Below, piece after piece: positions 27,001 to 63,000 of a DNA stretch of 64,000 nucleotides. The stretch lies in NCBI GenBank assembly GCA_964434115.1, contig CAYSSX010000007.1, forward strand, positions 82,734 through 146,733. The letters run 5' to 3'. Source of the stretch: an uncultured bacterium (GTDB taxonomy: Bacteria; Omnitrophota; Omnitrophia; Omnitrophales; Aquincolibacteriaceae). Under the pieces are notes generated by a model. The model was not told where the DNA came from. It ran no database searches and saw only the letters and a program-made list of their open reading frames with translations. Within the stretch, counting starts at the first letter, position 1, and the number at the start of each line of letters is the position of its first letter. The translations under genes and the position numbers were made by a program.

Positions 27001-30000
27001 GCTTATTACGAACTTCGTCCAGCAGTCTTCTTTTGAACGCGTGAGTATGACTCTGGACGAAGACAGAGAAGCCTTCTTCAGTGCCCTTGATCTTGAAGCC
27101 AAGGCCCGCCAGCAGCTCGACCGCGTCCGGGTAGACTTTGAGTCCATTCAGAAAAAATACGAAGAAACGCTGGATTTCCGCAATCAGACCTTTAACACTT
27201 TTGTGCAGAGCGCTGCGCTGCAGTACCAGGACAAAGCGAAAGAAGATCTTCGCCGTGAGTGGGAGAAAAAAGAGACTCGCGCCCGTGAGCTTGAACAGCT
27301 GGTGGAAGAGCTTCGCAACCAGCCCGATGCTCCGGATCTTTCTTCTGCGATTACTAACGCAGCCGCGGCCCGTGCCCTGGCCAATCTGGCCCAAGCCAAT
27401 TTTATGGCCTATTTGTCGGCCCGGCATACTCAGACCGATCGTTTTGAGGATCTTGTTTATGATCCGGCGAAGGAAGATTTCGAAGCCTCTCAGGCACTTT
27501 ACAGCCGTATCGAAAAGGCCTACCTGGAAGGACGCGGCGCGATTGAAAAGATGCGCGGTGTGCTGGCGGACACGGAAGTGAAAAAAGTGGAATTCCGTTC
27601 AGGTTTTCAGCTTGCCCAGTACATGATTGAAAACCGCAAGGAAGAAGAACGCACCTTGAAATGGGCGAGCCGTCTGGCGGAACGCGCGGCATCATTTGCC
27701 CGCGAAACCGTAGTGCCCCGCACCATGGCCGTCGAAACGGAGTTTGCCAGAATTACTAAGGCGTTGGATGCCGTGACGCGCCAGATTGAAGACCGCGCCA
27801 AAGGCAAGGCCATTGAAACAACCGATCAGAAAGAGGCCCTTGGTGACATCGACCGTGCGGAGAAACGAACGGATCAAATCCGCGAGGAATTGACAACCGC
27901 TTTTGATGAGTTCCTGTATTGGCTGGGCGGAAACAGCCAATTTAAGACCACTCTCCGTTTTGACCCCTGCGTGGCGCCGGCTTGCAATCCTGCTGCCTGG
28001 GAGCTTACGATTCAAATGCCGGGCTTGATCGATTCCTGGCGCGATGCGAACGGCAATGTGATTCTGGACAATACAAAAGTGAATAAGTACGGCCGCCATC
28101 CGGACATGGACGGCGACGGAAAATTTGACGAACTTCTAGAAATCAAAGTCGTCTTTGAGCCTGAGCTTGGCCTGTTTTGTTTAGAAAAGGCCTGTCAGGC
28201 GGGCGGCGCAGGCGGCCAGCTTATGCTTGACGGCGGCAGGGTTGACTTTGAAGGCCAGTTCTATGAAGTCAATTTTACGGGTGACCCCAAGAACGGCGGA
28301 ACGCTCACGCTGACTGCGCCTCAGGATGATCAAAAGGCGGGTGTTTTTGATGTCGGCGACATGGCGAAGGAAGACTACTTCAGCCTTGAAATCCGCAAGG
28401 TGGGTCTGGTCCGTGAAATCGGACTTCTTGTTGAAGAAATGCGCGCCCGGGACGAAGAGCTGACTTATCAGTACACCAAGCTCCTTACGCTGGAAGACCG
28501 CTACAAAGACGCGTTAAATGATCCTGCCTTTGGCGCCCCCGCGGAACGGAAAAATCATCCGGAAGCCGTCCGACGCTATGAACAATGGCGTGTTCAGCGC
28601 GACCTTGTTTCGCGTTTGACGATTGAACGTTTCGGCGTCATTGAAGTGCAGTGGGATGTGGCAGACCGCTCTAAACCGAAACTGCAGACCAATACGCTGT
28701 TCGCGGCAGGGGCCAACAAGTACCTGCCTTGGGACATCAAGACGGGCATTCCCAAACCCGCGGGCTATCCGGACATTGACGCCCGCAATCCGGGTGGGAC
28801 ATTTGACTGCACAAAAGATCCCTGGAAAGGCCAGTGCCATGATCCTGCGAGCGACAACATCGTCAAGAGCGTTGAGTTCCGCCTGCTTGCCAGCTTTGCC
28901 AAATTGAAATCGGTTGATAATCCGGACACCGCTGACGTGGACGGCCTTCTTAAGACGGCCAAAGACAAATACAACGAAGCCCTTGTGCGGGCCGGAACGT
29001 TTGCCGCCAGTGCCGGGGCGGGATCCATCCGTGATAAGTATTTGAAGGAATTGAAGGGTGTTGTGGATACCACCGCACTCACGGACCCGACGGTATACCA
29101 CCCGATTTGGGGCACCACGCGCGATGAAAGCAGCTGGGCCATGGCCAATGCCCGTTACATGGGTTACACCGGGCCTTATGATTTTGACCTGAAGGAAAAC
29201 CGCCTTGTCCAGCTGTGCCCGATGTTCACACTCCCGACATCCGATGACTGCGTCATGATGGATGACGATGGCAAGCCCATGATGGATGCTGAAGGTAATT
29301 ACAAACGCCGTCCCATTGAACAGTTCACGGGTCCCGGCACAGGTGAAGCCTTCCGTGAAATCCAGTGGCTGGCGTATTACCAGAAGGAAGCGGACATGAA
29401 GGACCTCGAGATCCGCAAGAGCTATCTGCGCCAGACAATTGAAGCCCTGGATAAACAGATCAATGAAATGACGGTGGCTAAACTGACTATGGAACAGGAA
29501 CTCCAGGGCCTGACCACCTCGCGCCAAAGCCTTACGGGCGCTGACAAGACACCGGGACAGGCCATTAACTTTTATTTTGATCCGGACTCCTATCCCATGA
29601 CGGGTTCTTCGGGCGCCGCGCTTGATCCTTTTGCTGCGGGTGAGATGACGCCGTATTTCTATGACCCGGCCAATGCCGAAAAATACATTAAAGCTGAAAC
29701 GAATTCCCGCGCCTTGATGCTGATGCGCCTTATTAAGCCGAAGACCAATAATAATGTCACGGTCAATGGGGAAGTGGTCACGACTGAAGAAGGTATCGTG
29801 ACGCAGGCGTTGAAAGACCTGATGGCACAGCGTAAGCAGTTTGAAGAAATGTATTCCCAGATGTTCCTTGGCTGGAACCAGCAGCCTGAGGACCCGGCCA
29901 AGCTTGAGCCAGGCGCGCCTACAGGGGAAGCGATTCAGGAAAACTGGCAGGATCATCAGGCGGCCTGGACAGGCAACTGGAGCCAGGTTCCGCCCAAGAC

Positions 30001-42000: not shown

Positions 42001-45000
42001 TATGGCCGGTTTCCTGCAAGGCCTTTCTCAGAATGGCGGCCAGAATATTGGTAACCTGCCCGGTTTTGATGAGCTGAACCGCCGGTCAGGTTATGGCCAG
42101 GCTCTTTTCGGATACTTCTTGAATATGACCATGCTGGCCATGTCTTTCCCGGTCATGATGGGCCTTGCCGGCGGTCTTTCCGGGCTCGGCGTTGGCGCTG
42201 CGATCGGTGAAGCCATTATGGAAGGCGCTTTGATTGCCCCGGACGCCAATATCATTTCTCCGCGCTTTGAATCCACGGACCAGACCGTCCGCCAGATTTT
42301 CAACCCGGAATACTGCTATCCGCCTGATCCGGAATGTCCCACGGAAATCGAACACCGCTGGACACTCAAGGTTCTTAAGGGCTATGCGACAAACCTGACG
42401 GAGTACGTGACCAAGTACGATCAGCCGCTGGATTCCATTGACCCTGTGCTTAAGGATGAAAAAGATGAAACCGGTGACATGGCCAATTCTTTCCTGGATG
42501 AACGGGCGCGTGAAAACAGCAGTCTTGCGCACACGATTGAAAGGTATGTGACCGACCGGTTAAAAGAAATCGAGTTCAATAAAGAGCTTTGCGATACCAA
42601 GGGGGTCTGCGACGCGGACCTTATTAGAGATCCGGATAAAATCGGTATGCAGGATTTCCTGGAAAATTACCTCTGGGAAGAAGATACCGCCTACATGAAT
42701 GTCAACGGTCCGCATGCCGGCCGTGAACAGGCCCGCCAGATGCTGGCCGTGTTCCCGTTTATGACCAAGGAGTTTTACAATACGACGTACGGCGCCAAAC
42801 CGGACAGCGAGGCCTTGGGGCTTTTGGCAGATATCGTGGATTATCAAGTGGCAGCGCTGACACCCCGAAAAGTGGAGTGGGGTCCGCCGCCTTCATCCTC
42901 CGGCGGCGGCACGGGCGGCCCCGGAAGCCCCGGCGGCTCGACGACGACGACACCTCCGGGTGGAACCATGACCGGCTCCGGTTCCGCCGGCTCGGGCATA
43001 CTTTCTGCCGTATCCTGCAATGGAAATCCGAACTGCAAAGTGGTGAGAAGTGAGCTTGTGGGGCCTCCGAACCCCGCGCTTCAAGGCCAGTTTGAAGCCC
43101 TTGATATGAACGAGAAGATGGAATGGCTCCTTGCCGGCAAAGTGAAGCTGGTTTTCAGCGACTCGACGTGGCTGGGCAAGACTATTAAAGACATGATTAC
43201 TAAGACCAAAGTTTACCAGGTCGAAAAAGACGCGGAGTTTGACACCTTCCTTGAGAAGGTTGGTTTTACAACGGCAACAGATTCGACCAAGTTTGATGAG
43301 GTGATGGGCCTTCTTACGCACAACATTGTGACCACGACGACGGACGAAGCTTCCCGTGTGGGCCAGTTGAGCCTTCTTGACGAGGTCCAGAATGAATACC
43401 GTTCTTATATTGAAGAACGGCGCATGGAAGCCAAACGCACAGCCACTCAGCAGGCGGAAGAAAGCCTCAGGCGCAGCGCCAACCTTGTCGGCGGTTACAA
43501 GGCCGACATCATGCAGGCCACTGACCTTGTGGCCTATGATCTCAATGAGACCCGGAACCAGGATTTGCGCGGGTTTGTCCGCTATGAAAATGGCGCGGAA
43601 CCTGCGGCCGATGCCTCAGCCGAAGAGTGGGAGAAATACTGGAAGGAAACCAAGTTCACCACCGGCTGGACGGAAGTTCCCTCCACGCTCCAGTCGCTGA
43701 TTCTGCCTTCTGAAAGGATGATACTCCCGACCGATGCCGAAAAGCGCGAAAGCGGCGTTGCCGGCCCTGACCTTCAATATGCGCTGGGCAACCTTGACCG
43801 TTATGAATACGACGTTGAAAAACTCTTTAAGCAAAGCCTTGAAGCGATCAATAAACTGACCACTGAAACGGTCAACGGCCTCAAGGAACATGCGGCCACT
43901 GAACCGCCTGTCCGCATTGCGGATCTGCAATACACGTCGCCTGATGAATCCGGGCCAATGAGCCAGTTCTTTGCCAAATACATGGATACAATCTGGGAGC
44001 AGGGCCGCACGGATTATGACGGCACTCTGACCGGTGATATGTCGGTCCGTCTGTCCAAGATTGACAGCCTGACCCGTGACATCTCGGGCTTCATGGAAGA
44101 ACTGCTGTCGAATCCGACGAAGACTCTCAATAGCACGGGAGACAATGATTCGCCGCTTCTTAAGATTGAAGATTATCTGGCCAAACTCCGCGAGCTGGAT
44201 AATTCGCTTCTGCTTTTCCAGGAAACCAAACTGAAGCGCGTTTATGACAGCAATGTTCTCGGCGGCAATCCGGCGGATGAGGCCATCACGGGCCTTGGCG
44301 ATATTTTCGATTTCAAGGGAACGACCCGCTACGGTAAAGACCAGGCCACGCATGTCCTCGACTTTGTGTCGAGCCAATACAACCGCTATGTGGACATTGC
44401 CCGCGCTCTCCTCACCGGGTATGAACAGATCCGCAAGCAGAATGGCCTGAATCTTGCGACCGAAGAAATTCGTTTTGACCTTGAGACCGTTGACCTCAGC
44501 CTGAAACTTGACGAAATCCAGAAAGTGGACCCTGAGCGCGCCGTCAAGATCCTTCAGCTGCGCAACCAGGCGCTTTCCATGATCCGGACCAATGATGCGG
44601 TGGCCAACTCCATCGCCTTCGCTTCCGCGGCCCGCTACATCATCAACCGTGAAGTGGCGCGTAATCAATTCTACAAACTTGCCAAGGAAGACGGTCAGAA
44701 GGTCAGCGATCTTGACCCGGCGTACTACCTCGCGTTCCAGGGCGGCAAGTGGGTCGCTACCGGCGGTGACAAGACTTTTGAAACAGACGGTGCGTTTATG
44801 GCCGAATACAAACAGTTCCTGCGTGAAGAGCTGGCGCCGACCAAGGCGTATGTGAACCATTACGTCATGGAATCGGTCGACGATCTCAATAATCGCGATG
44901 ACGCGATGGGTGTTGATGAAGCCGCTGCGGAAGAGGCCCGCCGCGACAGCCACGAATTGGAAAGGCTCAGCGACCCGACAAGCGATTACGCTGAAGACGT

Positions 45001-48000
45001 GATCAAGGACAATGTGAAGCCGGGCGTCAACGTGTTTGAAGAGTATGAATCCAAGGTTTACCGGGAAGTTTACGCTACGAAGATCGGTACGGGCGGCAAG
45101 ATGCTGGCCGACAAATTCGATGAACTTGAAAAGAAGGCTGCAGAATGGCTGAATGCCGCCGCCAAGCGCCGTGTGGAAGAGGGGATTGAGGGTGAAGCCC
45201 GCTTCCAGCAGTCCATCCGCGCGATCAAGGAGTACAAAATCGCTTACCGCGATTACCTCATCCGGTTCCTGAGAGGCGATACCTCGGAAGTTTTTGGAAA
45301 TCCGTTTGATCTTCCCGTGGGAACTCCGATCGAAACGCTCGAAACCGGCGACTTCGGCATCCTTCATAACCTCAGCCTGTATCTTTCCAAAGATGAAAAT
45401 TGGGAGATGACGATTGGCAAGGCCCTGAAAGACCAGTACGGCATGTATGAGCTGGTTGATCCCAAGGGCGCGGATGTCCAGAGCAACCGCCGCTATATTC
45501 TGGACGCCTCCGCGGCCAAGGAAACGGACAATCTCCAGACTCCGTGGGATGAAACCTTGGGCATGCCTTATCAGGATGACAGCTACAAATCAGTCCAGAA
45601 AGAAGTCTTGGTGCGCGGTGATGAAGCGGAACTTGTCATGGGAGAAGAACTGACCCGCCTCGTAAACAATTACGATTCCTGGTTTGACCAGATGGTGGAT
45701 GCGTACCGCGGAGGACTTTCCTATTTTGAAATTAACCAGACTCTGACGCCGGGAGCCGCCGCGGCTGCCCCGGTCACGCCCGGATCGATTCCCGCGGGCC
45801 TTGATATGCAGGCGGCGCGCGAATTGAAATACATGGAAATGCTGGGCAGCTTCCACCTCGGCCAGAGCCTTGCCGGGGCCACGCCCGCGACGGCCGAGGA
45901 TGCCGCGCTGTTCAACAACTTTAAGGCTTCCGTGAACGCGCAGTTTACGGCGGCCGGCACGAGCTACGGTATCAAGAAGAGCAAGGATTTCTTTGATGCC
46001 GTGCACGAAGAGGCCCTGAATATTTACGAAAAATTCCTTTTTGGAGATCCGGCCGACCCGACGCAGCCGGGTGCTTTGACGGAATACCGCAGCGATGTTC
46101 AGAGTCTCTATGAACTTGTGAAAGGTCTCGACAAGAAGGTTTCGAACATCCGTCAGCTGAAGGATGTGGCGCCCGTGGCGCAGGCCCTTGGAGAAGAAAT
46201 TTTCAGCCAGATTTACGACGTGATCCGCAACCTCGGCAATGAAATGCTTCGCGAGCAGATCGTCTATAACCGTCTGCTGATCCTTAAAATCAACGCCCAG
46301 AACTCCCTGAACAATTTCTACATTGAGAAAGTGCGCAAGATCATCACGATCATGCAGCAGCTCACGGCGGGCCAGTACACGAAGTTCTTCTCTCTGCCGA
46401 GAGACTGGTGGAAGCCGTTCTACGCGGGCGATTTCGGGCGCTTTACGGAAAGCGGACGCGATAACTTTATCCGTGACGCGATTGCCGCTCCGCTCGGCCT
46501 CAACTATAACGGCAGCGAAGATGACCGCAATAAGGTTTATCAGGAAATGGGCTTTATCGTCCTTGATTCCCTGACCAATCACGCCTTTGAAATGGGCGCG
46601 ACCAACCAGGAAATGGCCCTGTTTTCAACCGTTGCCGAGATTTTCGGCGAAAGCGTCGGGCCGATCAAATATTTCGACACGAAGAAAGACTTTGACGACA
46701 AGATGAATTACCTGCGGCAGGGCGGAAATCCTAATGACCCGCGCGGCCAGAAGATGACCACCCTTGAAGTCCTCGCGGAATGGCTGGACAAGGGCTTTAT
46801 CACGGAACAGGAATTCTTCAACTACACGGACCCGCACACGGAAACCAAGACCAAGGACGTGAACGTCATTATCGATATGATCCGCTCTTTGGCGGTCTTC
46901 GGCGAGAACCGTTTCAATAATATCATCGTGGGTTACGAGGACGGCATCCCCATCATCAAGAAGACCTATGGCAGCTATGAAAAGAAGATGGAAGAAATCA
47001 AGCGCAAGATGCTTCTTGCCGGCCGGCGTTTAGGCAGTGACGGAACGGTCCGCTTTGACGGCCCTGCCGCCGCTGATACGGCCCGCCGCAACGAAGTGCT
47101 TTCCGACCCGCGCATCAAGGCCGGCGAGGAAATCCGCGGAGACGGACAGCTGGCGAACATTTACAACGAAACCGGTGATTTCAGCGTCATTGTCGCTTCG
47201 CATGCCGATTTCTTTGACGGTACCGACGTGGCGAAGATCGTGACCCGTCCCAAAACGCCGGGTCTTTATGAGCTGGCAAAAACATTTTGTAAAGATACCA
47301 TCGGTGCGGATGGCGCGGACTGCAAAGCCTTGACCCGCATTAATGATCCGGGCGATCCCTGGAACAACGGGCGCTATGACTACACCGGTGAGTTTGAAGA
47401 TCTGTTCCTGGAAGGCGGCGCAGGGGACACGGGCGTCGGCTTGATCAACAGCTATTACAGCTCGGGTTCTGACGAGTGGGAATCCTATGTGCCGGACAAC
47501 TACGGCGGCATTTCAAGCGGCGCGGGTATCCGAGTCAGAACCAATTACGGTATTGACGCCCTGAAGAACAAGGAAGGGTATCTGGACATCATGCACGCTC
47601 TCATGAGCGGCGAATATGCCTCCGGAGATATTGACCCTGTGCTCGGTAAATTCCTCTACGGCTTAGGCGGTGAAAGCGGTATCGCGTCCCTGAACAACAA
47701 CAAGGAAGCCGCCCTGGAAGAAACCCTCCGGGCCATGCGTCTCAAGATTCAGCGGGATTACACGGAAGGCGGCGGCGCGGTTGAACTTTTGGCCCGCGAC
47801 GCGACGCATGTGGCCAATACGGTCCAGAAACTTTATGAAGACACCGTGGCCCGTATTTCGGACTTCTATGAAAACGGATCCGCGGCAGGTAAGGTGGAAG
47901 ACGGTAAACTTCTCGATGATTTCTCCCTGAACGGCCGCCGGAATCTTTCTGACTGGTCCTACAACTTAATGTTCAACTTCTCTGATTTTGATCCGCAGAA

Positions 48001-51000
48001 GTTCACCTCCAGCTCGAACTATGATTACCTGGCGGTTGAGGCGGATCAAGGGCTTAAGGAAATCGGTCTTCTTTCCGAGGCCCGTGACGGCGGCTTCGCC
48101 TCACGTGCTCGGGCTTACCAGAGCAAGTCGATTTTCCTTTCGGAAACCCTGACTGAAATCAACGCCCTTGAAGAGCGTGTCAAAGCCCACGTCACGCTTT
48201 CCGCCGACGGCCGTGTGCTTAACGGAGGCCTGCACTCCAGCGAAATCTGGGCCGGTATTGAAGAACAGAAAAAAGCCCGCCTTCGTGAATTGGAACGTGT
48301 GGGCGCGATCACGGCAGAAGACATTGAAAAGGTCGAAGGCCTTGTGGCCCTGACCGAAGATGAAGCCAAGCTTCTCAGCCTTCTGAATCAGGCGCAGGTT
48401 GCGGTTTCTCTTGTCGACAACCGCGACAACCAGGTGAGAAAAGTTTTCCAGAGCGGCCTTGCGATTTTGGAACAGGTCTTTGCCGGCAAGACAGGCGGCG
48501 CGTTGATCAGTGAAACCGTACGTTCCCTGCGTGAAAACGGCCTTATTGATGAACACACCCGCCAGGTCCGTCAGGAACTCCAGCGTGACAAGTACGGTGT
48601 TGCGCATTTGGTGGAAATCACAGAAATCACCAACAGCGTAAGCAATGCCGCAGGTGAACGGGCTGTTACCGGTTTTTGGGTGAACACAGTGGGTGAGCCG
48701 CTCAAACTGCAGGATTGGGACAGCTTCACGATTGATAAACCGTATGAAACCGTGCGTCTGCACAAAGATATTTTTGAACAGATCTTTGATTCTATTAAAG
48801 AAACACTGCAGCCAGTTTGGGACTATGTCCTGAAGCCTGTGGTGGATTACTTGACATATGTTAAAGATTTTTGGGTTGAGCAATGGAACAACTATGTGGT
48901 TCCTGCCGCGAACTGGGTTTGGAACAACGCGATTGCCCCTTGGGCCGTGCCCCTCTGGAATAATGTCGTAAAGCCTGCAGTAGAAACGGTTGGAGGATGG
49001 ATTAAAGAGGGGGCGGCTTGGGTTGGTAAGCAGATTGTTGCGGGTCTTGAAATCGCACGTGATTTTCTGCGGCCTATTGTGAGCGAAGTTGGCAGCTGGA
49101 TTAACTGGGCGGGACAGCAAGTCGTGGCTGCGTGGAATTGGTTTGCGTCGACAGAATTAGCCAACTGGTTGGTGAATGGTGAAGGTATTCTCCACACTCT
49201 GGCTTGGGGAGCCATTATTGCCGGATCTTTGTTGATTGCGCCTTCATGGTTTATTTACGCAGCCGTAGGAGCGGGTGTCCTTGCAGCTGTTGCCAATTCT
49301 GATTTCGAAGCAGGCTTTGTTTCGTTGATGAATGGCATGATCAACTTTACGAATAACGCCGTGAGAGTTGTTAATAACACCGTCGATTTTGTCAATAAAA
49401 TCATCAATAGCAAGAGCCCGGTTGAGGTGCTTAGTCACCTTGGGCATGCCATTAAGGATATCGGCGATTGGATTACCGCGAATATTGTTAGGCCCATTCA
49501 GAGCGCTCTTGTTCATGCCGCTGCAGCTATTCTCCGCTGGGCAGAGGCGAATCCCGAAATGGCGATAGCCGTTGCTATTGGCGTGGGCATCGCCTTGATT
49601 GCGCTTGCGATTGCGGGAGCGATCTTTTTTGCTCCCTTGCTTTTCGCGGCAGCCGGCACGCTCTCCTTTGGGGCGTCCATCCTGGCGACCGTTCTGACCG
49701 TATCCCTTTTGACCATGACGCTCGCCGGAATCATCCTTTTAGTGGGTGGAATTGCCGCGTATAACCAGGGTTCTCTTGCCGATAAAAAAGCCGTGATCAT
49801 GGCCACTTACACAGCCGCGATTCTGCTTGTGGGAAATATTTTGGGCGTGGGAGAACATGATTACAAACGGATCATGGGTAAAAATAATATTGTCACCCAG
49901 AACATCGCACTCATGAATAACCTGGCTCAGAACAGCTTTTATCTTTCCCTGGCTCTGAATCTGGCACTGATTGGCGGTTTTGTCGGAGCTGCCTTTGCCC
50001 TTGGCGGCGTAGGTTTTCTTCTTTTGATTCCTGCACTTCTGATCGGTGCAGCCACGCTTGCAGGCGCTAATTTCTTTACCATGACAGGCCTTAAGTTTAG
50101 TGGCGTTTTGGGTCTTGCTGCGGATGTAATTCTATTTATCGCCAGCATGAAACTTTCCGGCTGGTCAACCGGTGTTTCCAAGAAGTTCGCGAGCATGGTC
50201 CCGGAAGTGACCAGCACGTTCCGGGGTATGCTGTCTGCTATCGCGGGCCGAATCCTGGGGACGGTTAAAGGATTGCTTGGCTTTAAAGGAAACTGGATTT
50301 TTGTCAAAGCCATGGTGGCGCAGACGCTTTCAACCGGTTCATTTGCCCTTTCTTTGAGACTTTGGATGAACATGATGTTCAGCGGCGCCCAGGCCACGAT
50401 TTCAAGTCTTGGTACCTTGATGAATTTGATTTCGGCGGGTTCGGGCAATGGACTGGTCAACTATGATATTCGTCAGAATTTGTTTCAGATGGCCAACGCT
50501 CTTAAACAGTACGCAAATCCGTCGAATAAAGAGGCGTCTGCGTTCGCGAAATTTTTCGCCAATCTTTTGGGCGGTTTTATCAGTACCGCCCTCCATTTGG
50601 GCAATATCAGCGGGGAGTCGTCACTTTTGACCTTCCTTCATACCATGCCCCTTGGGCCCGCGTTGTTCTTGCTGGGTCCCATGGGTTTGTATTTGGGACA
50701 GAAATTCGGGCTCAGTTTCCTGAACGCTATCCCGGACATCAGCCAGAAGGCGATCCAGATGGGAAGTCAGAATTTCCTGGCTAACTTCATCGGCCAGGGA
50801 TTGAAGGGGTTCCTTGACGAAGTGTTTGTGGAAGGTATTGGCGGCGATGTGACGGAGTTGCTGCTTATTACGATCGGAGTTGACAAGGATGCCGCACAAA
50901 CTCTTGCCGAGCAATTCGCAGAATTCCTTTCTATGGGCGGTGAAGGCGGCGCGATTAGCACCAGTGAAAACCTGGCCGCGCTCCGCGATTTTATGGGCAC

Positions 51001-54000
51001 GGCGGATTATCAGCAGTTGATTACCAATATGGGCAGTGCAGACCTTGACGCTGTGGCAGGTCTCTTTAAGGATGCGAAAGATTTCCAGGCCTTTGTCACC
51101 CAAACCCTGGGACAGGCCGGCGGCCTTGAAGTTTTGAAGAAAACAGCGGATGTCGCTGCTACCCTCCGGGCTGTCAAGGGCCTGGATGGTAACGAAGTTC
51201 TGGAAACACTGGGTGAGAATCTTAAACTGACCAAACTCTCGGATGTTTACAAGGATGGCGGCACTGACGGACTGACGAAATTTGTGTCCCAGATTTCCAA
51301 CACCAATGTGTTTATGGCTGCGGCCAAGCTTGCGGGAACACAAACAGCGACTCAGGCAGCCAATATCCCGTCGCAATTCCATACGGAACACTTTTTGAAT
51401 AATCTTCGGGACACTTTGGCATCGACCCAGGCTACCCGCGCGTCACCCGCGATTCCGCAGGCCATGCCGTCATCTCTTCCGCTTTCCCCGGGAACCGCCT
51501 CAATTCTTGGAAATACACTCGTGAATCGTTTTGGACTTATCGGAGGCTCCATCCTGGAAGGAATGTGGGAAGAAAGCGCGTTCCGCGGCGTGCTTGCTAT
51601 TGGCGCGACCCTGGCGGCTTCGTTCCTGACAGGCGGTCTGGCCTTAGGGCTTGTGCTTGGCGGCATGGTGGTGGCTCAGGCGCTTGTGTTCGCGGCGCTT
51701 CATAATAACGACTACCACGGCACATTGTCTCTGGGGAACTTCATGGGACTCTTTGCTTTTGGCGTTGTGGCCGGCGGCCTGGTCACCGCGATTACGCTTG
51801 CCACGGGCGGGACTTTCCTGGGTATTGCGGGTGCTATCGGTGCGGCCGCCACTTTCCACACCGCCTTTAATATTATTCAGCGGTTCAACAATTCCACCGG
51901 CGTGTCCAGCTTCTTCTCAGCTTTTCTCAATCAGGCCGGTTTTGTCTTCTCACCGTTGATTCTGCCTCTGCTTTCGCTGTCAGGCACCATGCTCACCGCG
52001 CTTGCCGGGGCCGCGGGTTTTGTGACATCGCTTTTGGGCGGCCTGGGCTTCCTGGTGGGATTGACGGGCATCTTCAATATGCTGCAGGGACAGCTGGTGA
52101 ACCTGCCGCAGGTGGCGCCTGACCTGGTCCGTTTGGATAATTTGAACTTCCTTCTCGGCCAGTATTCTCTGCCTCAGGTTGTAAGCCTGTTCCGCATGCA
52201 GGGCTTTGATGCTGAAACACTCCGCGTGGCGCTGGTTCAGTACACGCTGAGTACCAATTTCAGCAAGTTTGATTTCGGCCAGCTTGCCATTGCCTTGATT
52301 CAAGGCTATCAGGGCGTTCCAAATTTTGATCTTGCTGTGCTGGTTCAGAACTTCCTCGCGGTTCCGCAAATTCAGGTAGATGCGGCCAATTTTACATCGC
52401 TCATTCACGGCCTGCTGCAAAGCGGCGTGAACATTGGGGAAATCACGCAGCTGATCGCGTTGAGCTCTTTCCTGCAGAACAGCAATTTCAGCTCTTTACA
52501 GGTCATTACGGCGCTTCTGACGCTCCCGAATATCGGACACGACCAGATTGTGGACATCCTGGGCGCCTTAGTCCAGCTGCCGGGAATTAACGACACCAAC
52601 ATTAATGACATTATCAGCAATATTCGTGCGGTGCAGGGACTTGACCTTGATTTGTCGGAACTCGCGGGTATCCTGGTGCAGTTTAATAAATTCTCGATCC
52701 CGAACCTGGTGCAGGTTTTCGCCGGCCTTGTGGATTTCGCGAATATTAAAGTTGAGGACCTTCAGAATCTTGTCCTTGTCTTTTCATCGGTGGTGGACCT
52801 TTCGGACCTCCAGAACTTGACGGATTTTGTCACAGTGTTTGCAGGCAATGTGACAGACATTGCCCAGCTCCAGAAGCTGATCAGCAGCTTCACGAACCTG
52901 AACGTTCCGATTGTGAATGTGGTTCAGGTCTTCCTCGGGCTTCCCAATTTGCAGGGCCTGAATTTTGTGGACCTTCTTACGGTATTTACCACGATCCCGA
53001 ACTTGAGCAATACGGATCTCGTTGATATTTTCAACGCCTTTTCCACACTGGGAACTTTCCAGGGACTTACCGCCGTCGGTATTTTGAATGCCCTGATGGC
53101 TGGCAACTTTGCGAATGTTCCAGGCTTTACGGGCGCGAATTTACTTCAGATTCTGGACCTTTTCCGTGACCTGAATTCCTTTAAAGATCTGAAGGCGCTG
53201 GATATTGCGAACATCTTCAAGGCGATTCCTTCCCTGACAAGCCAGGACATCGTGAATCTTATGAATCTTTTGACAGGGTTTACCACGATCAACGATATCG
53301 TGGGGCTCGCCAATGCTCTTGTGGGTCTGGAGCAGCTGACGCAGGATGATGTGATCCGCCTCGCCAATCTTTTGATTATCAACATGCCGCAGGCCGCGGC
53401 CCTCGATGCTGCAGGACTTGCCGCGCTCGCGGATATCTTTAAAGCAAAAGGCCTTGATGATCTGCACATGATCCAGATCGCTCAGGTCTTTGCCGGCATT
53501 CCGAATCTTGACTCCACGAAAGTCCTGGCGCTTCTGTCCGTGTTTATGTCTATACCGTCCCTGCAGACGGAAGCGAATCTGCTTCAGCTGGCGCAGATTT
53601 TTGCCGGCGTCCCGGGCGTTGGCCTTGTGGATATCGCGACCGTGTTCCTTAACCTGCCCAATCTTTCCGAAGCGGCGGTTCTGGGTTTTGCCGGCATTTT
53701 CGCAGGAATCATGAATGCGAATGTCAATGTGAGCGTTCTGGAAATCCTGGGCGTGCTGAACCTCTTCTCGAGTGTGCCCAACATCAACATGGTCAATCTT
53801 GCGAGCGTGTTTGCCGGAGCTTTCACCGGCAATGAAAGCTCGCTGCTCATGCTGGCTCAGTTCTTTGCGGGCAAAATCAATGCGGGCGACCTTCAGGCCC
53901 TGACCCAGCTGCTTAAAGTCTTCACCGATATCCTGAGCCTGAACAACATGACGCAGGATGGGGCTGTGGACCGTCTGATCACAAGCTTCCTCGGCAATTC

Positions 54001-57000
54001 GAATGTTTCGATCGTGGATCTTGTGAAAGCGTTTATGACGCCGGAAAATCTTGCGGATGCGAATTTTGCCCAATCCCTTGCAAATCTCATGGCCCTCAGA
54101 ACCAGTGCCATGACGGTCCAGGAGCTCCAGGATATCCTTGGCGTCTTTGTGAACCAGGGGAGCATCAATTTGTTGAATCTTGTCGGAATTTTTGTGGACG
54201 CTCTTCCTGCGGGAGATCTGGACGCCCTTAAATTCCTAGTGCTCGGCTTCTCGAATTACCGGAATGTGGGACAGCTTTCCGAGCTTTCCGAATTGCTTGA
54301 GTTCTTTCACACGGCAGGCGTTGACATTCTTGACCTGGCGAACGCCTTCCAGGTCCTTCCCATGGTCCAGGCCGACATCCGGGGTTTTGTGGGGTTGTTT
54401 GCCACGCGTTTTGCGGACCTCAGCATCATTCAACTGGCTGGACTTTTTAATCTCTTCAAGTCCTTAAAGGACATTGACGGCAATAATTTTACGCTTGAGA
54501 CGCTTGTCGATATTTTCAAGGGAGTTGTGGACATCAATGATTTGAACAACCTTGGCAAAATCCTTGAATCTCTGTCCCAGATCACGAACCTCAATGATGC
54601 TGCGCAGTTCACGGAACTGTTCAATGCTTTCGCTGCCGCTCAAGTGAATTTGGCGGATCTGCTGTTTGCCTTCGGCACGCTCTCGAATGTGACTTTGACC
54701 CAGACGCAGATCCTGCAGCTGGCCAATTTGGCCGCGCTTGCAGCCAAAAAACAGGGTTATTTCACAAACGCGGCCGAGCTTGCCCGCATTTTGGACGTCC
54801 TTTCCAATCTGGGACTTTCAGCCACGGAAATTGCAGGCGTCCTTCTCGCACAGATTGATGTCACGGACAGCGCTCAAATGGCGCAGATCCTCGCGGCCTT
54901 TGCCCGGAATACGGACCTGTCGGTTCCGGCAAACTTGAGCGCGATCATGAATGCCTTTGCCGCGAATCTTGACCTTACAAACGTCCTTGAGCTCTTCAGC
55001 CTTTTTGAGGCTTTCAATACTCAGCAGGGTGTCACTTTCCCGGCGTTTACTCAGGCCTTTGTGAGTATCCCCGGTATTGTGACCATGCCGCAGGTCTTTG
55101 AAGAACTGGCCGAAATGCTGGCCCACCGGTATATGACCGACTCAAATTTCAGCGCTGCTGATATGCAGGCCGTCATTGATATTCTGATGAATCAGGGCAA
55201 TGTTTCGCGGGTGGCAATCCTCCAGCGTTTCATGCGCAACATGAACGTTCAGGACATCAATGACATGGCGCGTCTGGCCGCGGCTTTTGAAAACGCAGTC
55301 ACAAATGAAGCTGATTTGAGAAGCCTTATCAATGACTTTTTGGCCGCAGGTTTCACCGACCTGGGTAATGTCATCGCTGGAATTTCAACGCTCGGCTTCT
55401 TCTCTGATTTCAACAATCTCAAAGTGCTTGCGCTTGTGGCTGCACAGCTTCTGGATTATACGAGCGGGGATATTGAAGCAGCTGCCGCACGGGTGTTTGG
55501 CGCGATTGCCAGCCGCATGGACATGGGCGATAAAGCGCAGGTTCTGGCGATGCTTGAGATTTTTGCTAATAACGCGCTGCTGACGCTGCCGGAATATGCG
55601 ATGGGTATCCTGGTGAAAGCGTTCTTTGCCCAGGTGAACATCACGGATGCCAATGCCGTGAAGACCCTGGTGGAAGCTTTCTCGGAATTCTATCATTTGA
55701 CCACGGACGCGGCGAACCTTGACGTCTTTATTGCGGCCCTGTCGCAGGCGGGCCTCTCTCTCGGCGCTGTCGCTGAAACGCTGGCGGGCCTTCCGGGAAT
55801 GAATGCCTTTATGCTTGCCAACTCCATGGCCAAGGTTGCGCGGCTTGAAGATATGGAAGCCCTGATGAATGCCTTTGTCCGTGACGGGCGCCTGACTCTG
55901 GCGCAGTTTGTCGTCGCGGTGGCGTCGGCCCAAAACGTCGATATGGTTGAGTTTGCGCGTCTGATTGCCCCGCGTGTGGACGCTTCCAACCGCGAACAGC
56001 TCCGGATCATTATTAACGTCCTTCACCTCCAGGGCGGTGTTTCCTTTGTGACGCTTGCCGGAATCTTTGTCGATGCCGGAAAATTGAGTGTGGCTGAAAT
56101 CGCGGATATCTTCGGCCGTGAAATCGATGAGGCAAGCGTGAATGACATGATTACCTTCTTTGTCAGCAAGGGCTTGAGCCTTCTCCAGATCGCCCAGATC
56201 TTCATTAATGGCCAGGCGGACAGCACGACCCTGACCATGGAAGATCTTGTGTACTACTTCGGCGGTTTTGTGAACCAGCAGGATCTTGGAAGTTTGATCG
56301 ATCTCTTCCTGGCCTCCGGCAGTATCAGCATTATTCAGATTGGTCAAATGCTTCTGAACGCCACGAACGCGAATGTTACGAAAAACCAGATGGCCCGTGC
56401 CGTGATCTCCCGCGCCGGCATCGGCGATGTCATCGGGCTTTTTGGGCTGATTTGGAACTTCTTCTGGAACCAGAGTGTTTTTGGGTTCCTCGAAACGGCC
56501 CGCCTCTTCTTTGACGCGCTGGCCATGCCGCTGATTAATAGGCTCTCGGTGCTTGCGTCCGTCTTCAAAGCGTACTCGCAGCCCTATTCCGGAGTCGTCA
56601 AACTGAGTCTTGAAAACGGGTTGACGCTCGAAGACGCGGTCAAGAGTTTGAGTGAGCAGAATGTGCCGCTTGTGGACATCGTCCGCGCGATTCAGGCCGA
56701 GCTTCCGGGCATGAGCCTTCTGGATATTTCGAAAGTTCTTTATGACGCGGCCAAAATCAAGGGAGCGGCGATTTCCCTTCAGGACATCGTAAATCTGTAC
56801 AGAGATACGTTTGGTATCGATTACCGGCTTGTGATCAAGGCGATTTTTGGAATTGATACCCTGCCCGGCGGTGTCGTGGTGACTCAGCCGATCCGAGCCT
56901 CGGACATTGAAGCGGCTGGAACGATTCTGAATACCGTAAACCAGGCGACCCAACCAGCGGTGTCTAACAATAACGTGACAGTATCCCGCGATACGGCGAC

Positions 57001-60000
57001 AGTGACAGCCATTGCCCGTGCTGTGGCAACGTACGGAGTCGAACGAGCTCAGGAGATTGTGCAAGCTCTTCAGACCATCGCTGCCCAGGGAACCGTCGTG
57101 GTTGTGACAACTCAGACCGTGGATCTTGTTCAGCAGGTAATTCTTGACCGGGCCGCGAAACAGGAGAATGTTGCCCAATTGGCGCAGAATGCGGCCCTTG
57201 CGGTTCAGATCCTTCAGCAGGCGAATGTGACTCTTGGCGCGCAGGCGATTCCCATTACACCGGCGCTCATCAGCGGCGTGGTGGATGTGATTCAGCGCGT
57301 GGATGTGACCGTGACGGCTGCGAATCTTGCCCAGGCGGTTGCGGCGATTCAGCTGGTGGTGCCTGCGGGAACAACTATTACGGCTGCTCAAATCGCCGCG
57401 ACCATTGTTGCCATTCAATCCGGTGTGTTGGTGCAGGATATTACTCTCGCCAGTATTCAAGCCGTTCAGGCGATTCTTGACTCGAAAGACAAGGCGATTG
57501 ATGTCACAAAGATTACTGCTGTGGACATCAAATCTGTCGAAGCGATCCTTGTTGTGAACCCGGCGTTCCAGATCACAGCCGCGAGCATTGCCGCGGTCAA
57601 TATTCTGATCGAAAAAGGTCTTGCGGTTCAAACCGTGGAACGTATTGAAGCCGCGGTTCAGCTTGCGGCTGCGAAAATAGATATCGTGGAAGCCAGTGTT
57701 TTGGCCGCGGTCCAGGTGATCAGCTTTGGCTTGAAGGTCGATGTTGCGACTCTTCAGGCGCTGACTGAGGTCACGGGCGGCCTGACCCAGGTCACTGCGA
57801 CCAATATTGCGCTTGTGGCTGCGATTATCCGTTCAGGGGTTGCGGTCACGGACCTTGCTCAGTACATCGTGGCCAATGGCAGCGGTATTCAGATCATTAC
57901 CCCGCCTGCCGGGACAGCACTTAACATCCAGATGGGAAATGTTCAGGTCCAACTGCCGGCGGACACGGTGTTCCAGGTCAATCAAGCGACCGGTGAATTG
58001 ACCTATAAGGTTCCCGATATTGGCGGTCTTGTTACGATCGGCAGCCATTCTCAACTGGCCCTTGCCGGCGGTACTCAGGTGACGGTCAACCGCAACGGCG
58101 TGATGACTTATCAGGTGGCCGGAACCACGACCCAGATCGGCGGAGTAACGCTTGCGGCCAACACGACGATTACCGTGAACTCTCTTGGAGCCGTGACGGT
58201 GACCGGTACCAATGTGATTAATCTTGCTGGAAATACCGTGACTGTGACAACGATTAATGTCACGGAGCAGGGAGCTGTTCAGTACACGCTTCCCGCCGCG
58301 ATTCTTGTCAATGGTCTCGTGGTTCCGGCAGGAACCACGGTTTCTCAAACCGCGACAACTGTGGAATACACTGCCGTAGCCGACCTTACAGTTCCGGTCA
58401 ACGGCCAGAATGTTGTGCTTCCCGCCGGGACAATCTTTACGCTTTCAGAAGCAGGCCTTGCGATCAAGGTTTCGGCTGTGGAACAGACGATTACCGTGGC
58501 GGGTGAAACCGTGAAGATTGCGGCCAATGCCCAAGTCCTTGTGCTGGGTCAGGAAGGCGTGAAAGTGGTTGAAGGCACTGTGACTCTCGGCAGTGTGGTG
58601 GTTCAGCAGGGTGTGACGTTTACGGTCAGCACGGTGAATGGAACCGCGGCCGCAGTGGTGACGATCGCGGGCCAAGCCGTGACCCTGACGAATAATGTGC
58701 AGGTTTCTGTGGTGAACGGCGTTACGACGATTCAGGGTACGAATGTCGTGGGACAGGTGGTGGTAGGCACAACGGTTTATCAGGTCGCGGCCGGCACTCA
58801 GCTCACTTATACCGCTCAGGGAGCTCTTAAGATTGAGAGCGCTGCCGGTACGGTCATGGTCACCGAAGGCACCCTCAAGATCGAAACCGGCGGCCAAGTG
58901 GTGGAAGTTGCGGCGGGCGTTCAGATTGTTAAAACCCAGGACGGTATTTCCTTTGTCAATACGGGAGCAGCTGCCACAGTTGTCAAAGTCGGGACAGGCA
59001 TTTTGGATGTGTCCGGGTCTGGAAGCATCCGCGTGGACAGCAATGGCAATGTGATCGTCACAGGCGGGAATGTCAGTGTCACGGGACCGACAGCCGTGAC
59101 CATGCGTTTTGGTTCAGTGACGACAGCGATCAGCGCGGGAACTCTGGTCAATGTTAATGCTCAGGGGACGGTTCGGATCACGGCGGCCAATTCCCAGATT
59201 GCGGTCGGCAGCATGGTGGTTCCACTTGCCACAGGCATCAGCGTTTCGATTGATACGCAAACCGGCAAAGTGGCCGTGATTTCTGAAACCGCAGGAACCG
59301 TACTTAATGTCGGCGGCACTGTGATTAACACCACTCCGGGTGTCACGGCAGTGATCAACACTCAAAACGGACAGGTCGAGCTTACGGCTGTTTCCGCCGC
59401 TGCGGTCGTAACCGTCGGCGGAACGGTGGTGAATGTCAACCAAGGCAGTGTGGTTCGCGTGGATACGGCAGGCGCTGTCACCCTGGTTGCCGGAACCAAC
59501 GGCTCTGTCATTCAGGTTGCTGGCACTTCGGTGGTGGTCGGACAAAGCGGGGTGGTCAATATCGACGTTCAGGGTAAGGTTTCGATCGCGGCCCCTGTGA
59601 ACCGTACTTTGGACGTGACGGTTGGCACTACGGTTTATACGGTTGGCGCGGGAGTTCAGACCGTTTTTGAAAATAGCGTTCCGTCCTTCCATGCGACCGT
59701 GGATTCGAATGTGGTTGTCAATGGCGTCAAGGTGGAGGCCAAGGCCGGCACGGTCTTCGCTGTGGATGCCGCTGGTTCTATCAATGTTACGACCGGCGCC
59801 GTGGCCGTGGCTTCGGGTCCTGCCTCTGTGACGGTCACGATTCTGGGGCAGGTTTATGAGCTCGCTCAGGATTCCCGGATCGAAGTCAATACGCAGGGTG
59901 CTGTAACTCTTTCACAGGGCACTGTGGCCATGGTCGTGGATGTGAACAAGGCTCAAACGGTCAATGGCGTGACTTATACCGCCACGCAGGCCGCCACAAA

Positions 60001-63000
60001 GATCGAAGTTACTTCGACCGGCGGTTTGGCTGTGACAACCGGTGCTGTGACGATTGCCCACGCGGCTGCTGCGGAAGTCCGGGTGCTGGATATCAATGGT
60101 CTGGGGTACCGCCTCACGGGCGGCTCCACGATGACGCTGGACGCCGCCGGGAATGTGACCGTAACCGGCGGATCCATCTCCATCGCGAACCCCGGCAGTA
60201 CGGCTGCGGTGCGTACGGTAAATATCAACGGTGCTCTTTACACAGTCAATGGTAATTCCGCCCTTACGGTTCAGCAGAATGGAAGCATCCGTCTTGTGAA
60301 TGGAACTGTTACGGTTCAAAATGTTGCGGCCCAGGCGAAAACTGTGACGGTGGGTACGGCCGTGATTACAGTTGCCGCGAGTGAACGGGTCATTTTGACG
60401 GAAGGCAAGAATATTGAAGTTACGGGAGTCTTCACGCTTGAGAATACTTCCGCCACGGAATCTGTCACGGTTGTTTCAAACGCCCAGCTGATCACCGCTG
60501 CGGCAAGCTCTGCGGTTCGTGTTCAGGAAGTCGCAATTGGCGCCAGCGGAACCGTGGCTCAGAAAATTACGGTTGTTTCCGGAACCGCCACCGTGGTGAA
60601 CACGAGCACGTCATCGGTGCACTCGGTGGTAACGGCAGACGGTTCGATTTACCAGTTGGCCCCGGGCGCGGTCATGACGATTGATACGGCCAGCGCCATC
60701 ACCGTTACCGAAGGCCGCGTGGAACTCACGGCGGGCCGCGGAGGCTTGATCCGCTACGGCCAGTCGGTCATTCAGGTTGAAAAGGGAACTGTCATTGAAG
60801 TCATAAACGACACCGTGACCATCGCCGCATCAAGCAATGTCCGGACAGTGACGGTGGGCACAACCGTTATGCAGGTTGGTGCGGGTGCGGTCATCACCAC
60901 GGACCTCGCCGGTAACGTGGTTTTGAATGTCCAGGACATTACAACGATTCAAGCCAATGGCGTTCAGATTGAAGCCGGAGTTGGGACTCGGGTCAATGTG
61001 ACGTCCACAGGCGTTGTCACTATGGTCACTGGCGTGGGTGCCGCGGCGGTGACCGTGAACGGAATTCAGGCCCAAGTGGGTGTGGGCGCAATTATTTCTG
61101 TCGATGCTCAGGGAGTTCAGGTTCTTTACCCGGCCGGCCAGATTCTTCTGACGGTGAACGGCCAGACCTTTACGGTGCCGGCCCAGGTGGGTGTGAACTT
61201 TGCGGGTGGTGCCGTGACACTGGAATCCGGCGACCGGACCCGCACGGTTTCCTCCGCGAGCCTGACTTACACAATCGGCGCCAACAGCAGTCTTACTATT
61301 AATAACTCAGGCGTTTTGACAGTTAAAGCGGGTCAGGTCACGATTTCAGGCGGCAGCGCGACGGTTCAGTATGGAAGCGCCACAGTCCGTGTTACCGGAA
61401 CTGTGGTGGCAGCGGTGGACACGGTTCGTCCCACGACTTCAGCAGCGGTGACCTATACCCTTGGAAACGCCACGCTGACGGTTGCTGCAGGTCTTGATGT
61501 TGTTGCTGGCGGCGTGATCCGCACCACAGCCTTGACTCAGACCGGTACGTTGACTGTGGCTGGAACGCAGATCCTTACGAAGGCCGGCGCAGCGGTGGAA
61601 GTCAATGCACAGGGAGTCTGGACGGTTCAGGCTGGTGCTTTGGGTGCGGCAGTGGTGATTAATGGTGTTACGACTCAGGTGACGGCCGGCGGCGTAATCA
61701 CGGTCGACAATCTGGGACATATTTCAATCGTTTACCCGCAGACACAGACTCAGGTGGTTTTGGTTGGCAGCACGGTTGTTGAAGCTGCGGCGGGTGCCCA
61801 GGTCACCGTGAATAACGGTGTTGTTAATGTGGTCGCACAGCAGGCCTCGACGGTCACGGTGAACGGTTCCGTTTATCAGGTGGCGGCGGGAACCGAAATG
61901 ACGGTCAATGCGGCCGGCGTTGTCACGCTCACAAAAGCAGGCTCGGTGACAGTTGTCACGGGTACCGTCAATGTGCAGGTTGGCGCCAATGTGATTACGG
62001 TTCAAAACGGGACAACCCTGACACTGAATGCGAGCGGCAATTTCACGGTTGCCTCTGCGGCCAATGTTACGCTGATCGTTAACGGTGTCACGGTCACAGC
62101 TGCTGCCGCGAATATTAATGTGACGGCGCAGGGCCTTGTGGAAGTGACTGATACAGTGAATCAGCAAAAACAGATTTTTGGCTTTGGCCAGTCCGTCACA
62201 GTCCCTGCCGCAGCCCAGGTGAGCCTGGTCAATGGCCAGCTCTCAGTTCAGGTTGCTCAGACAGCGGGCAATGTGGTGGTTGGAGCTTCGACTCTTGCCG
62301 CGGCGGCAAACACTTCATTCCTTGTGAACAGCTCAGGCCAGATCATGGTGCAGACCGGTCAGCTGACGGTCGGCAGCACAACGGCCGCGGGCGTCAGTTT
62401 TGCGTATGGAAGCACGGTCATCAACGCTCGTACAGGAACCGTTGTCAATGTCAACAGTCAGGGAGTTTCGACGATCACACCCACAGCAGCGGTGACCGGC
62501 GGCCTGACCGTTGTCAACCAGGGCGTGACCGTACGGCTTGGAGCAGGCGTTGCCTTAACGGTCGACATTGCCGGAGTTGTTGTTGCTCAAAGCGGAGCCA
62601 ATACCGTTCTTTCGCTGAACGGCCAGCTTGTGGAAGTCGGACAGGGAAGATCGATTACGGTCACTGAAAATGGAACGGCCATCATTGCGGCTGGACCTCA
62701 GACAAGAATTTTTACAAATACGGGATTAACGCTGACTCAACTCGAAGATGCCCGTGTGACAGTTACGGCCCAGGGCATTGTGGTTGAAGCGGGAACAACG
62801 GGTGTACGCGCCAGCAGCGTCCTTTTCCAGGGTCTCACGTTCAGCGCCGGAACCATCCTTCGTTTTGAAAACAACACGTCGGTTGTGGAGCTTGCTCAGA
62901 ATGCGGTTATGACCAAGGGCGGAGCGGTTATTACGGCAGCCGAAGCAACACGTTTGACCTTTACGGAAGCCGCGGTTACGTTGCAAAGCGGTAATGTAAC

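Follow-up and report, generated by a model that had tools for sequence, protein, structure and literature searches.

Tryptophan repeats resembling those of phage tape measure proteins beside putative membrane segments of a giant dockerin-bearing protein

Annotation is almost entirely lacking for giant bacterial proteins, and the question of how they attach to membranes or affect them has no answer yet. The stretch of DNA analyzed here (64,000 nucleotides of contig CAYSSX010000007.1, hereafter the window) raises this question at a defined site: its + strand carries a frame that starts at nucleotide 2 and runs without a stop codon across all 64,000 bases (21,333 codons), and far along this frame a tryptophan-rich repeat directly precedes the first strong hydrophobic segment. 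What kind of repeat is this, and what might it do next to a membrane? The feature under study covers aa 16270-16387 (residue i corresponds to nucleotide 3(i-1)+2), and a preliminary description had likened it to the 11-residue amphipathic repeats of apolipoproteins, perilipins and synucleins. The comparisons reported here point instead to the aromatic-marker helical repeats of phage tape measure proteins (TMPs). With a rough probability of 55%, the segment is a short array of such repeats in a dockerin-bearing giant protein, in which a TMP-type helical stalk and membrane-insertion module would have been reused. The repeat array type itself would then be a known one and its placement in a giant protein new, and the array would provide the first homology-based handle on this region.

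The repeat and its similarity to tape measure proteins

The segment at aa 16271-16390 contains 14 tryptophans in 120 residues against 1.06 expected, which is the unique maximum of the 21,333-residue frame (Poisson probability 1e-11 per window of residues), and aa 16270-16387 give the highest self-similarity at lags 11/12 among about 530 sliding windows of the giant protein. The repeat unit is roughly h-W-x-[N/D/Y]-[N/Y]-h-h-x-P-h-h, with clear units at aa 16273, 16295, 16307 and 16319 and degenerate ones to about aa 16384. Unit 1, VWDYVLKPVVD (nucleotides 48815-48847, + strand, aa 16272-16282), is a domain found by the unit hidden Markov model (HMM) and aligns with 'VWTYVIKPVVD' of the AvGardian TMP. 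It sits 22 residues before the first WNN unit and is followed by units 2-4, QWNNYVVPAANW, VWNNAIAPWAVP and LWNNVVKPAVET (nucleotides 48881-48988, + strand, aa 16294-16329), which gives a unit spacing of 22, 12 and 12. Units 2-4 keep an exact 12-residue register, with WNN at aa 16295, 16307 and 16319 and with W, N and P fixed in three consecutive WNNhhxP units. The degenerate units IARDFLRPIVSEVGSW and WINWAGQQVVAAWNWFAS (nucleotides 49052-49150, + strand, aa 16351-16383) are aligned with 'YVKPAFEAVGDV...VWNW' of TMPs. Two WNNxxxP units in direct succession, searched as a DNA pattern, were found at two places in the window and in none of 100 shuffles. No DNA tandem repeat was found, and a recent duplication at the DNA level was set aside on this ground.

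The preliminary description had recognized a Trp-rich repeat with W and P/N at fixed positions, and this is borne out in three consecutive units, except that the unit length is 12 and not 11; when the sequence is cut into the 11-mers quoted there, the tryptophan drifts from position 2 to 3 to 4. BLOSUM autocorrelation of the core gives z = 4.3 at lag 12 and z = 0.4 at lag 11, and over the wider region of aa 16255-16420 it gives z = 4.0 at lag 11 and z = 2.9 at lag 12 (family-wise p 0.006-0.01). Both lags are significant at the scale of the region, where the repeat is Trp-marked, helix-prone and about 11-12 residues long. A Fourier transform of the tryptophan positions only, the analysis proposed for the 11-residue period, peaks at 12.0 rather than at 11 and is marginal (p 0.04-0.12). 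The longest [FW] chain has two members at step 11, or three members with steps {11,18}.

Aromatic-marker (W/F) repeat arrays have been described in siphophage TMPs (Belcaid et al. 2011, PMC3271669), including the TMP of TP901-1 (Mahony et al. 2016, PMC5099701), as 11-residue (11/3) helical repeats. In Patterns 1 and 2 of Belcaid et al., the aromatic markers recur at a constant 11-residue or an 11-11-18 spacing over many repeats (PMC3271669). These repeats form an extended helical ruler, the shortening of which shortens the tail (PMC3271669, PMC5099701), and two hydrophobic regions near the repeats have been described (PMC5099701). In the tail lumen, TMP forms a trimer; it is released on infection and has been proposed to form an envelope-spanning channel via its transmembrane (TM) regions (PMC13033339).

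A DNA motif scan with WNNxxxP-x5-WNNxxxP in metagenome and genome contigs returned mostly unrelated low-complexity proteins and non-coding repeats together with one TMP, and phage records were therefore searched. This TMP-like protein is encoded on an activated-sludge contig (L010:8465-9871, - strand) and on a contig of a Bacteroidota metagenome-assembled genome (MAG) (L059:3-1499, + strand). It has PHROG TMP matches and an endolysin-like match, contains VKAWVTELWDDTLFPFWNNKMKPDIVDFWNNTLWPLMKKGG beside hydrophobic segments, and carries FWNNKMKPDIVDFWNNTLWP units with hydrophobic segments on their flanks. The WNNxxxP unit is therefore found beyond the best-matching actinophage TMPs, in a TMP-like protein encoded by a Bacteroidota MAG contig.

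A tblastn search with aa 16255-16400 against 50,697 phage records matched 322 of them, with a best E of about 1e-3 and 26-34% identity over 50-90% of the query. A tape measure protein annotation is carried by the gene at each of the top 40 matches and at 57 of 60 rows taken at even intervals through the ranking; the other three of the 60 comprise one gene with a DD-metalloendopeptidase annotation, one Paenibacillus-phage gene that has the TMP coordinates of related phages, and one record with the note 'putative tape measure protein'. The matched phages belong to several unrelated groups, with hosts that include Gordonia, Microbacterium, Arthrobacter, Paenibacillus, Enterococcus and Brochothrix, and the best-matching TMPs are gp28 of Gordonia phage Sour, gp16 of Microbacterium phage AvGardian and gp22 of Arthrobacter phage KBurrousTX. 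With the query reversed, 5 records were matched (E>=1), and with it shuffled, 3, none of them a TMP. Noise matches numbered 1 and 3 for the flanks of 655 and 501 residues, respectively, and 0 for the 367-residue TM cluster.

The same family was reached through PHROGs, a library independent of the tblastn-based choice of TMPs. The segment of aa 16240-16520 (281 residues) matched TMP family phrog_1272 with E=8.2e-6 in an alignment over aa 16254-16502, and the 146-residue core matched eight TMP families (best 8e-4); a further match of the array was to a 1,338-position family bearing the label endolysin, and no family was matched by the reversed control. These matches were obtained only with the query shortened to 146-281 residues, and long queries gave no match for the array region in Pfam, NCBIfam or PHROGs. 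In hhalign, the array aligned with an alignment of six Microbacterium-phage TMPs at a probability of 95.4% (E 1.7e-8, 35% identity over 99 columns), compared with 0.2% for the reversed and 0.5% for the shuffled control. In the opposite direction, when the giant protein was cut into chunks and searched, along with decoys, by HMMs built from TMP sequences alone, only the array was matched (E 6e-6 and 2e-5, decoys >=1.1). Taken together with the tblastn, hhalign and PHROGs results, the Microbacterium-phage TMP profile delimits a first TMP-like W-repeat block at nucleotides 48755-49153 (+ strand, aa 16252-16384), which contains and slightly exceeds the studied feature.

By eye, the alignments are persuasive. 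AvGardian VWTYVIKPVVDLI stands against VWDYVLKPVVDYL of the array, Sour AWNNVIKPVIDFMLGGW against LWNNVVKPAVETVGGW, and Fribs8 WLWNNAITPAWN against WVWNNAIAPWAV; the last two TMP stretches, together with 'WLWNTIIAPAM' of Sour, are the counterparts of units 2-4. The array and siphophage TMP arrays share the unit W-x-N-N-h-h-K/A-P-h-h-D followed by 'GGW' or 'IG', helix propensity, a position beside TM-like segments and a similar content of W and P (9.6% and 4.8% here, 9.6% and 4.6% in the array of phage Sour).

Membrane segments, codon usage and a possible stalk

The array ends 12 residues before the first strong hydrophobic segment by Kyte-Doolittle hydropathy, a putative membrane span of 30 residues with a central proline ('TM1', WGAIIAGSLLIAPSWFIYAAVGAGVLAAVA, nucleotides 49205-49294, + strand, aa 16402-16431), and the placement of the repeats directly before the first membrane segment in the preliminary description is therefore correct. 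Just ahead of this segment lies the aromatic cluster AAWNWFASTELANWL (nucleotides 49127-49171, + strand, aa 16376-16390), which contains one of the lowest interfacial free energies of the protein. The TMP profile aligns not only at aa 16252-16384 but again past TM1, at nucleotides 49349-49513 (+ strand, aa 16450-16504). This second TMP-like block is a second HMM domain, consists of N-rich heptad helices and the unit AIKDIGDWITANIVRPIQSALV, which aligns with TMP AIGEIVDWVWTYVIKPVVDLIV, and is covered by the phrog_1272 alignment to aa ~16502. Since the profile aligns on both flanks of aa 16402-16431, the array straddles TM1. A comparable arrangement was seen in eight of nine TMPs inspected, where the W array starts at, overlaps or interleaves with hydrophobic segments.

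The whole stretch between TM1 and TM2 (nucleotides 49295-49549, aa 16432-16516) is N-rich with heptad periodicity (lag 7, z=4.3) and contains MNGMINFTNNAVRVVNNTVDFVNKIINS. It is followed by TM cluster 1, a membrane core of about 6-7 predicted hydrophobic helices (nucleotides 49550-50161, + strand, aa 16517-16720), for which no similarity was found in the phage records. A second TM cluster carries, at nucleotides 51569-51871 (aa 17190-17290), the CPBP/Rce1-like motifs EESAFRG, FAALH and HTAFN in the right order and spacing. In CPBP/Rce1-like intramembrane proteases, EExxxR, FxxxH and HxxxN/D follow one another in this order on TM helices. The triad occurs once in the giant protein and in 0 of 300 block-shuffles, and the match is one of motifs only; Pfam families, PF02517 among them, gave no match for aa 17190-17290 at E<=10, and PDB sequences were not matched either.

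The array and TM cluster 1 also share a distinct codon composition. A tract at nucleotides 48590-50365 (+ strand, aa 16197-16788) that covers both has a G+C content at third codon positions (GC3) of 0.46-0.52 against 0.63 +/- 0.048 overall, and the minimum of the entire frame, 0.46 at aa 16320, is centered on the array. Five of seven proline codons in the tract are CCT, compared with 19% CCT overall, and elsewhere proline is mostly encoded by CCG. The low GC3 and the shift to CCT suggest that array and cluster belong together as a module that had a history of its own, possibly of phage origin, or is tuned separately in translation; the trough could reflect either foreign origin or slow-translation tuning around membrane insertion. 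Smaller GC3 troughs lie at aa 3074-3287 and 20786-21147.

Based on these features, a possible arrangement can be proposed for the TMP-type array. The 133-146 residues would form an extended, probably self-associating α-helical rod as in TMPs, about 20-22 nm long if fully helical (1.5 Å per residue) and coupled to membrane-inserting helices. The helical period in hydrophobicity and, at low confidence, the continuous helices of a single-sequence AF2 model speak for the helical character of the array. The rod could serve as a membrane-proximal stalk that carries the ~16,000-residue N-terminal dockerin-bearing part into the membrane core, and the terminal Trp cluster of the array may sit at the lipid-water interface. 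Reuse of TMP parts has precedent, as TMP-derived coiled-coil and TM modules are reused in cellular contractile machines (PMC13277306). Among them, Sle1, a cargo of the phage-tail-like particle of Streptomyces lividans, has a TMP-like coiled coil and a TM hairpin outside phages; in contrast to the array, which is internal to a giant surface protein, it is small and travels as cargo in a contractile machine, and the two are likened by description and not by sequence (PMC13277306). An analogy of architecture only is offered by the DNA-pilot protein H of phiX174, an envelope-spanning helical tube with hendecad and then heptad helical repeats and amide-rich positions beside a TM segment (PMC7354561); here, an 11/12-periodic block is followed past TM1 by a heptad N-rich block.

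Several observations weigh against the TMP-type array. In the ~7,000 residues around the array (aa 14255-21333), a further TMP or phage family was looked for and not found, the flanks and the TM cluster being devoid of TMP likeness, and the E-values, taken singly, are modest (best tblastn about 1e-3). The reciprocal profile tests are not independent, because their TMPs were picked by the same tblastn search. Compositionally biased repeats can converge, and the few weak TMP matches drawn by the reversed query imply that periodic composition contributes to the similarity. Although similarity in sequence and profile and adjacency to hydrophobic segments were both found, the strict TMP pattern of [FW] every 11 residues with seven markers was not, and neither was the 11-11-18 spacing: the spacing here is 12 or 22, compared with 11 in Firmicutes-phage TMPs and 19/27 in actinophage TMPs, of which the best-matching ones themselves depart from constant 11 or 11-11-18 spacing (lags 19/27/46). 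The main block is N-terminal to the hydrophobic segments here and C-terminal to them in the TMPs examined. A single-sequence monomer AF2 model of aa 16230-16600 is all-helical at low confidence (pLDDT 48.6) and too weak for a fold search, and the oligomeric state, topology and membrane behavior proposed above are inferences. No homologue turned up either: HMMER with aa 16201-17400 found none among 1.84 billion representative proteins, protein collections gave no relatives for aa 16201-16733, 17400-18599 or 16255-16400, and no locus related to aa 16201-16733 was found among the contigs of GTDB genomes, JGI metagenomes and IMG/VR.

Taken whole, the giant protein is plainly no tape measure protein. 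A TMP is encoded in a tail module after tail-assembly chaperone genes, has hundreds to about 2,000 residues and sets tail length. In contrast to siphophage TMPs, the array has about 6-8 units only and belongs to a dockerin-bearing open reading frame (ORF) of more than 21,333 residues with no tail-gene cluster, and neither a TMP core (PhageMin_Tail) nor a lysin domain lies near it. If the TMP-type array is real, it would be another case of cells reusing phage tail parts, and for TMP biology a W-unit outside the tail tube would bear on whether this unit acts as a ruler, a chaperone anchor or an intrinsically membrane-related element. A bolder and rather improbable extension is that the giant surface protein of a predatory or episymbiotic bacterium, probably Omnitrophota-like, took over the membrane-penetration module of a phage TMP, that is, the W-marker rod and hydrophobic helices with their own codon usage, either as a ~20 nm oligomeric conduit joining the membrane core to the 16,000-residue exterior or for insertion into prey membranes. 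This would amount to a tail-less use of phage injection hardware, and ~20 nm is roughly the width of the periplasm.

Alternative explanations

The best-surviving alternative, which nevertheless appears doubtful, is a generic aromatic anchor before the TM segment, in which tryptophans at the lipid-water interface fix or strain the first TM helix as in the Trp-rich membrane-proximal regions of viral fusion proteins and the likeness to TMPs is convergent. The membrane-proximal external region (MPER) of HIV-1 gp41 is such a Trp-rich element with 'WNWF..NWL'. The cluster AAWNWFASTELANWL directly before TM1 recalls this motif, and both are aromatic clusters N-terminal to a hydrophobic span with favorable partitioning; Wimley-White interfacial energies are -2.8 kcal/mol for the WNN core and -5.7 kcal/mol over the 19 residues of aa 16366-16384, the latter below the protein's 1st percentile. 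The weak TMP matches of the reversed query also speak for an effect of periodic composition. However, the TMP similarity depends on residue order, with 322 records against 5 and an hhalign probability of 95% against 0.2%, and it extends to non-aromatic positions (N, K, P, V/I, D, GGW). Neither sequence kinship to known MPERs nor a class I fusion architecture was found, no PDB chain, gp41 included, being matched at E<=10, and the likeness is anecdotal and not statistically significant. Moreover, the array comprises ~130 residues of repeats, far beyond the need of an interfacial collar, whereas an MPER is one element of 20-25 residues. Elsewhere in the protein, a second aromatic cluster, GLFGLIWNFFWNQSVFGFL (nucleotides 56411-56509, aa 18804-18836), has the best Wimley-White interfacial energy of all (-9.7 kcal/mol over 19 residues) and is remote from every predicted TM cluster.

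The proposal of the preliminary description, in which 11-mer (3-11) amphipathic helices like those of apolipoproteins, perilipins and synucleins rest flat on the outer surface of the membrane and form a collar that binds it or senses its curvature, is unlikely. The helices of ApoA-I are punctuated by proline. The array is likewise helix-prone, Pro-punctuated and periodic at about 11-12 residues, and it adjoins the first hydrophobic span; its hydrophobicity has a significant helical period of ~3.8 residues (p<=0.003), and the mean hydrophobic moment of the repeat region is 0.35-0.37, above the 0.22 +/- 0.12 of the whole protein. The moment check suggested for this idea succeeds in the flanks, where values of 0.5-0.63 at aa 16252-16275 and 16342-16365 exceed the protein's 95th percentile, but fails in the WNN core, where the moment of 0.16-0.25 is near the protein-wide mean, tryptophans lie on opposite helix faces and aa 16294-16323 contain zero charged residues. 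Unlike the 11-mers of these families, the array is Trp-rich and has neither an 11-residue register in its core, where the period is 12, nor a strong moment with a charged polar face, and no Apolipoprotein, Perilipin or Synuclein profile was matched at E<=10 in Pfam or NCBIfam. All detectable similarity is to TMPs, and a one-sided collar does not account for the repeat type resuming beyond the first hydrophobic segment. The Wimley-White energies favor an interfacial position, and the tryptophans may still have a role there. The general idea of a helical repeat adjacent to the membrane survives, but the apolipoprotein/perilipin/synuclein analogy does not.

Two further candidates for the array were rejected, namely a β-solenoid or β-hairpin, because hydrophobic moments calculated at 160 degrees fall below the average, and choline- or sugar-binding aromatic repeats, because no G/Y signature and no profile match was found. 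No usable structure emerged when the PDB was searched by sequence with the W segment, with the cluster before TM1 and with a TMP array.

A chaperone or secretion handle, by which the array would bind a partner that keeps the adjacent hydrophobic helices soluble until insertion, is also unlikely. The W/F markers of TMPs are stated to anchor tail-assembly chaperones (PMC3271669), and the array lies on both sides of the first hydrophobic segment; against this, no partner gene is visible, the window being one ORF, and the chaperone-anchor role is itself only proposed in the TMP literature. Finally, a chance or low-complexity artefact without specific function, with which the marginal Fourier result and the lack of a homologue that could show conservation would agree, is highly improbable in view of the W enrichment (P about 1e-11), the motif pattern (0/100 shuffles) and the order-specific TMP similarity with clean controls.

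The giant reading frame

What the window encodes is a piece from within one giant protein, the length of which exceeds 21,333 residues. The ORF fragment (nucleotides 2-64000, + strand) is open at both window ends and was delimited from the stop-free frame, the dockerins and DUF1080. Pfam identified 12 Dockerin_1 stretches (E 3e-64) in the N-terminal part and a 3-keto-disaccharide hydrolase (3keto-disac_hyd)/DUF1080 domain at aa 2010-2184 (nucleotides 6029-6553), and no other domain across the whole frame. The DUF1080 domain is surrounded by dockerin-type calcium-binding repeats with 18 D.N.DG-type motifs (nucleotides 3467-8701, aa 1156-2900), and the following aa 3000-6000 are Ala/Leu-rich, with a weak spectrin-repeat match at aa 3874-4020. 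Strong hydrophobic segments by Kyte-Doolittle are confined to aa 16402-16720 and 17197-17359, and a single weak candidate lies upstream of them, at aa 3277-3295.

In architecture, the fragment agrees with the dockerin-type giant proteins of Omnitrophota (West-Roberts et al. 2023, bioRxiv 10.1101/2023.11.21.568195), of which a dockerin-bearing class has been described (bioRxiv 10.64898/2026.06.07.730766). Like them, the window encodes a giant ORF with multiple dockerin repeats and DUF1080, and most of the N-terminal part is devoid of TM helices, with a TM cluster far downstream. Such proteins carry TSP3 repeats and, after the TM anchor, SecA-like domains; neither was matched by Pfam inside the window, past both ends of which the ORF runs. 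Tape-measure-like repeats go unmentioned in both reports (bioRxiv 10.1101/2023.11.21.568195; bioRxiv 10.64898/2026.06.07.730766).

Downstream of the TM clusters, the region at nucleotides ~57000-64000 (aa ~19000-21333) is rich in T, V, G, A and N, almost Trp-free and poor in charges, with short strand-like repeats; judged by its composition, it looks like a β-solenoid or adhesin and extracellular rather than cytoplasmic. A simple N-out/C-in topology is therefore doubtful. In the same part of the frame, weak PHROG matches to an exonuclease family (nucleotides 54437-55252, aa ~18146-18417, E 5e-4) and a baseplate assembly family (nucleotides 58772-59092, aa ~19591-19697, E 1e-3) are probably noise, because ten queries were compared with 38,880 families. 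Three long ORFs on the - strand within the giant frame (nucleotides 55385-57631, 748 aa; 43616-45367, 583 aa; 28514-29956, 480 aa) are most likely shadow ORFs resulting from the codon bias of the sense frame.

The motif scan also returned by-products unrelated to the array. Perfect 12-residue tandem repeats of YYWNNEVGPGSQ follow a signal-peptide-like start in two loci (L011 and L048; 4 matches each, 72-nt spacing), and Flavobacterium proteins are built of GWGWNNWYGP repeats (L005, L058, L072 and many Flavobacterium loci). In the Ga0116226-231 contigs (L003, L008, L012 etc.), 'WNNILLPKS' repeats are broken by stop codons and probably represent non-coding satellite DNA.

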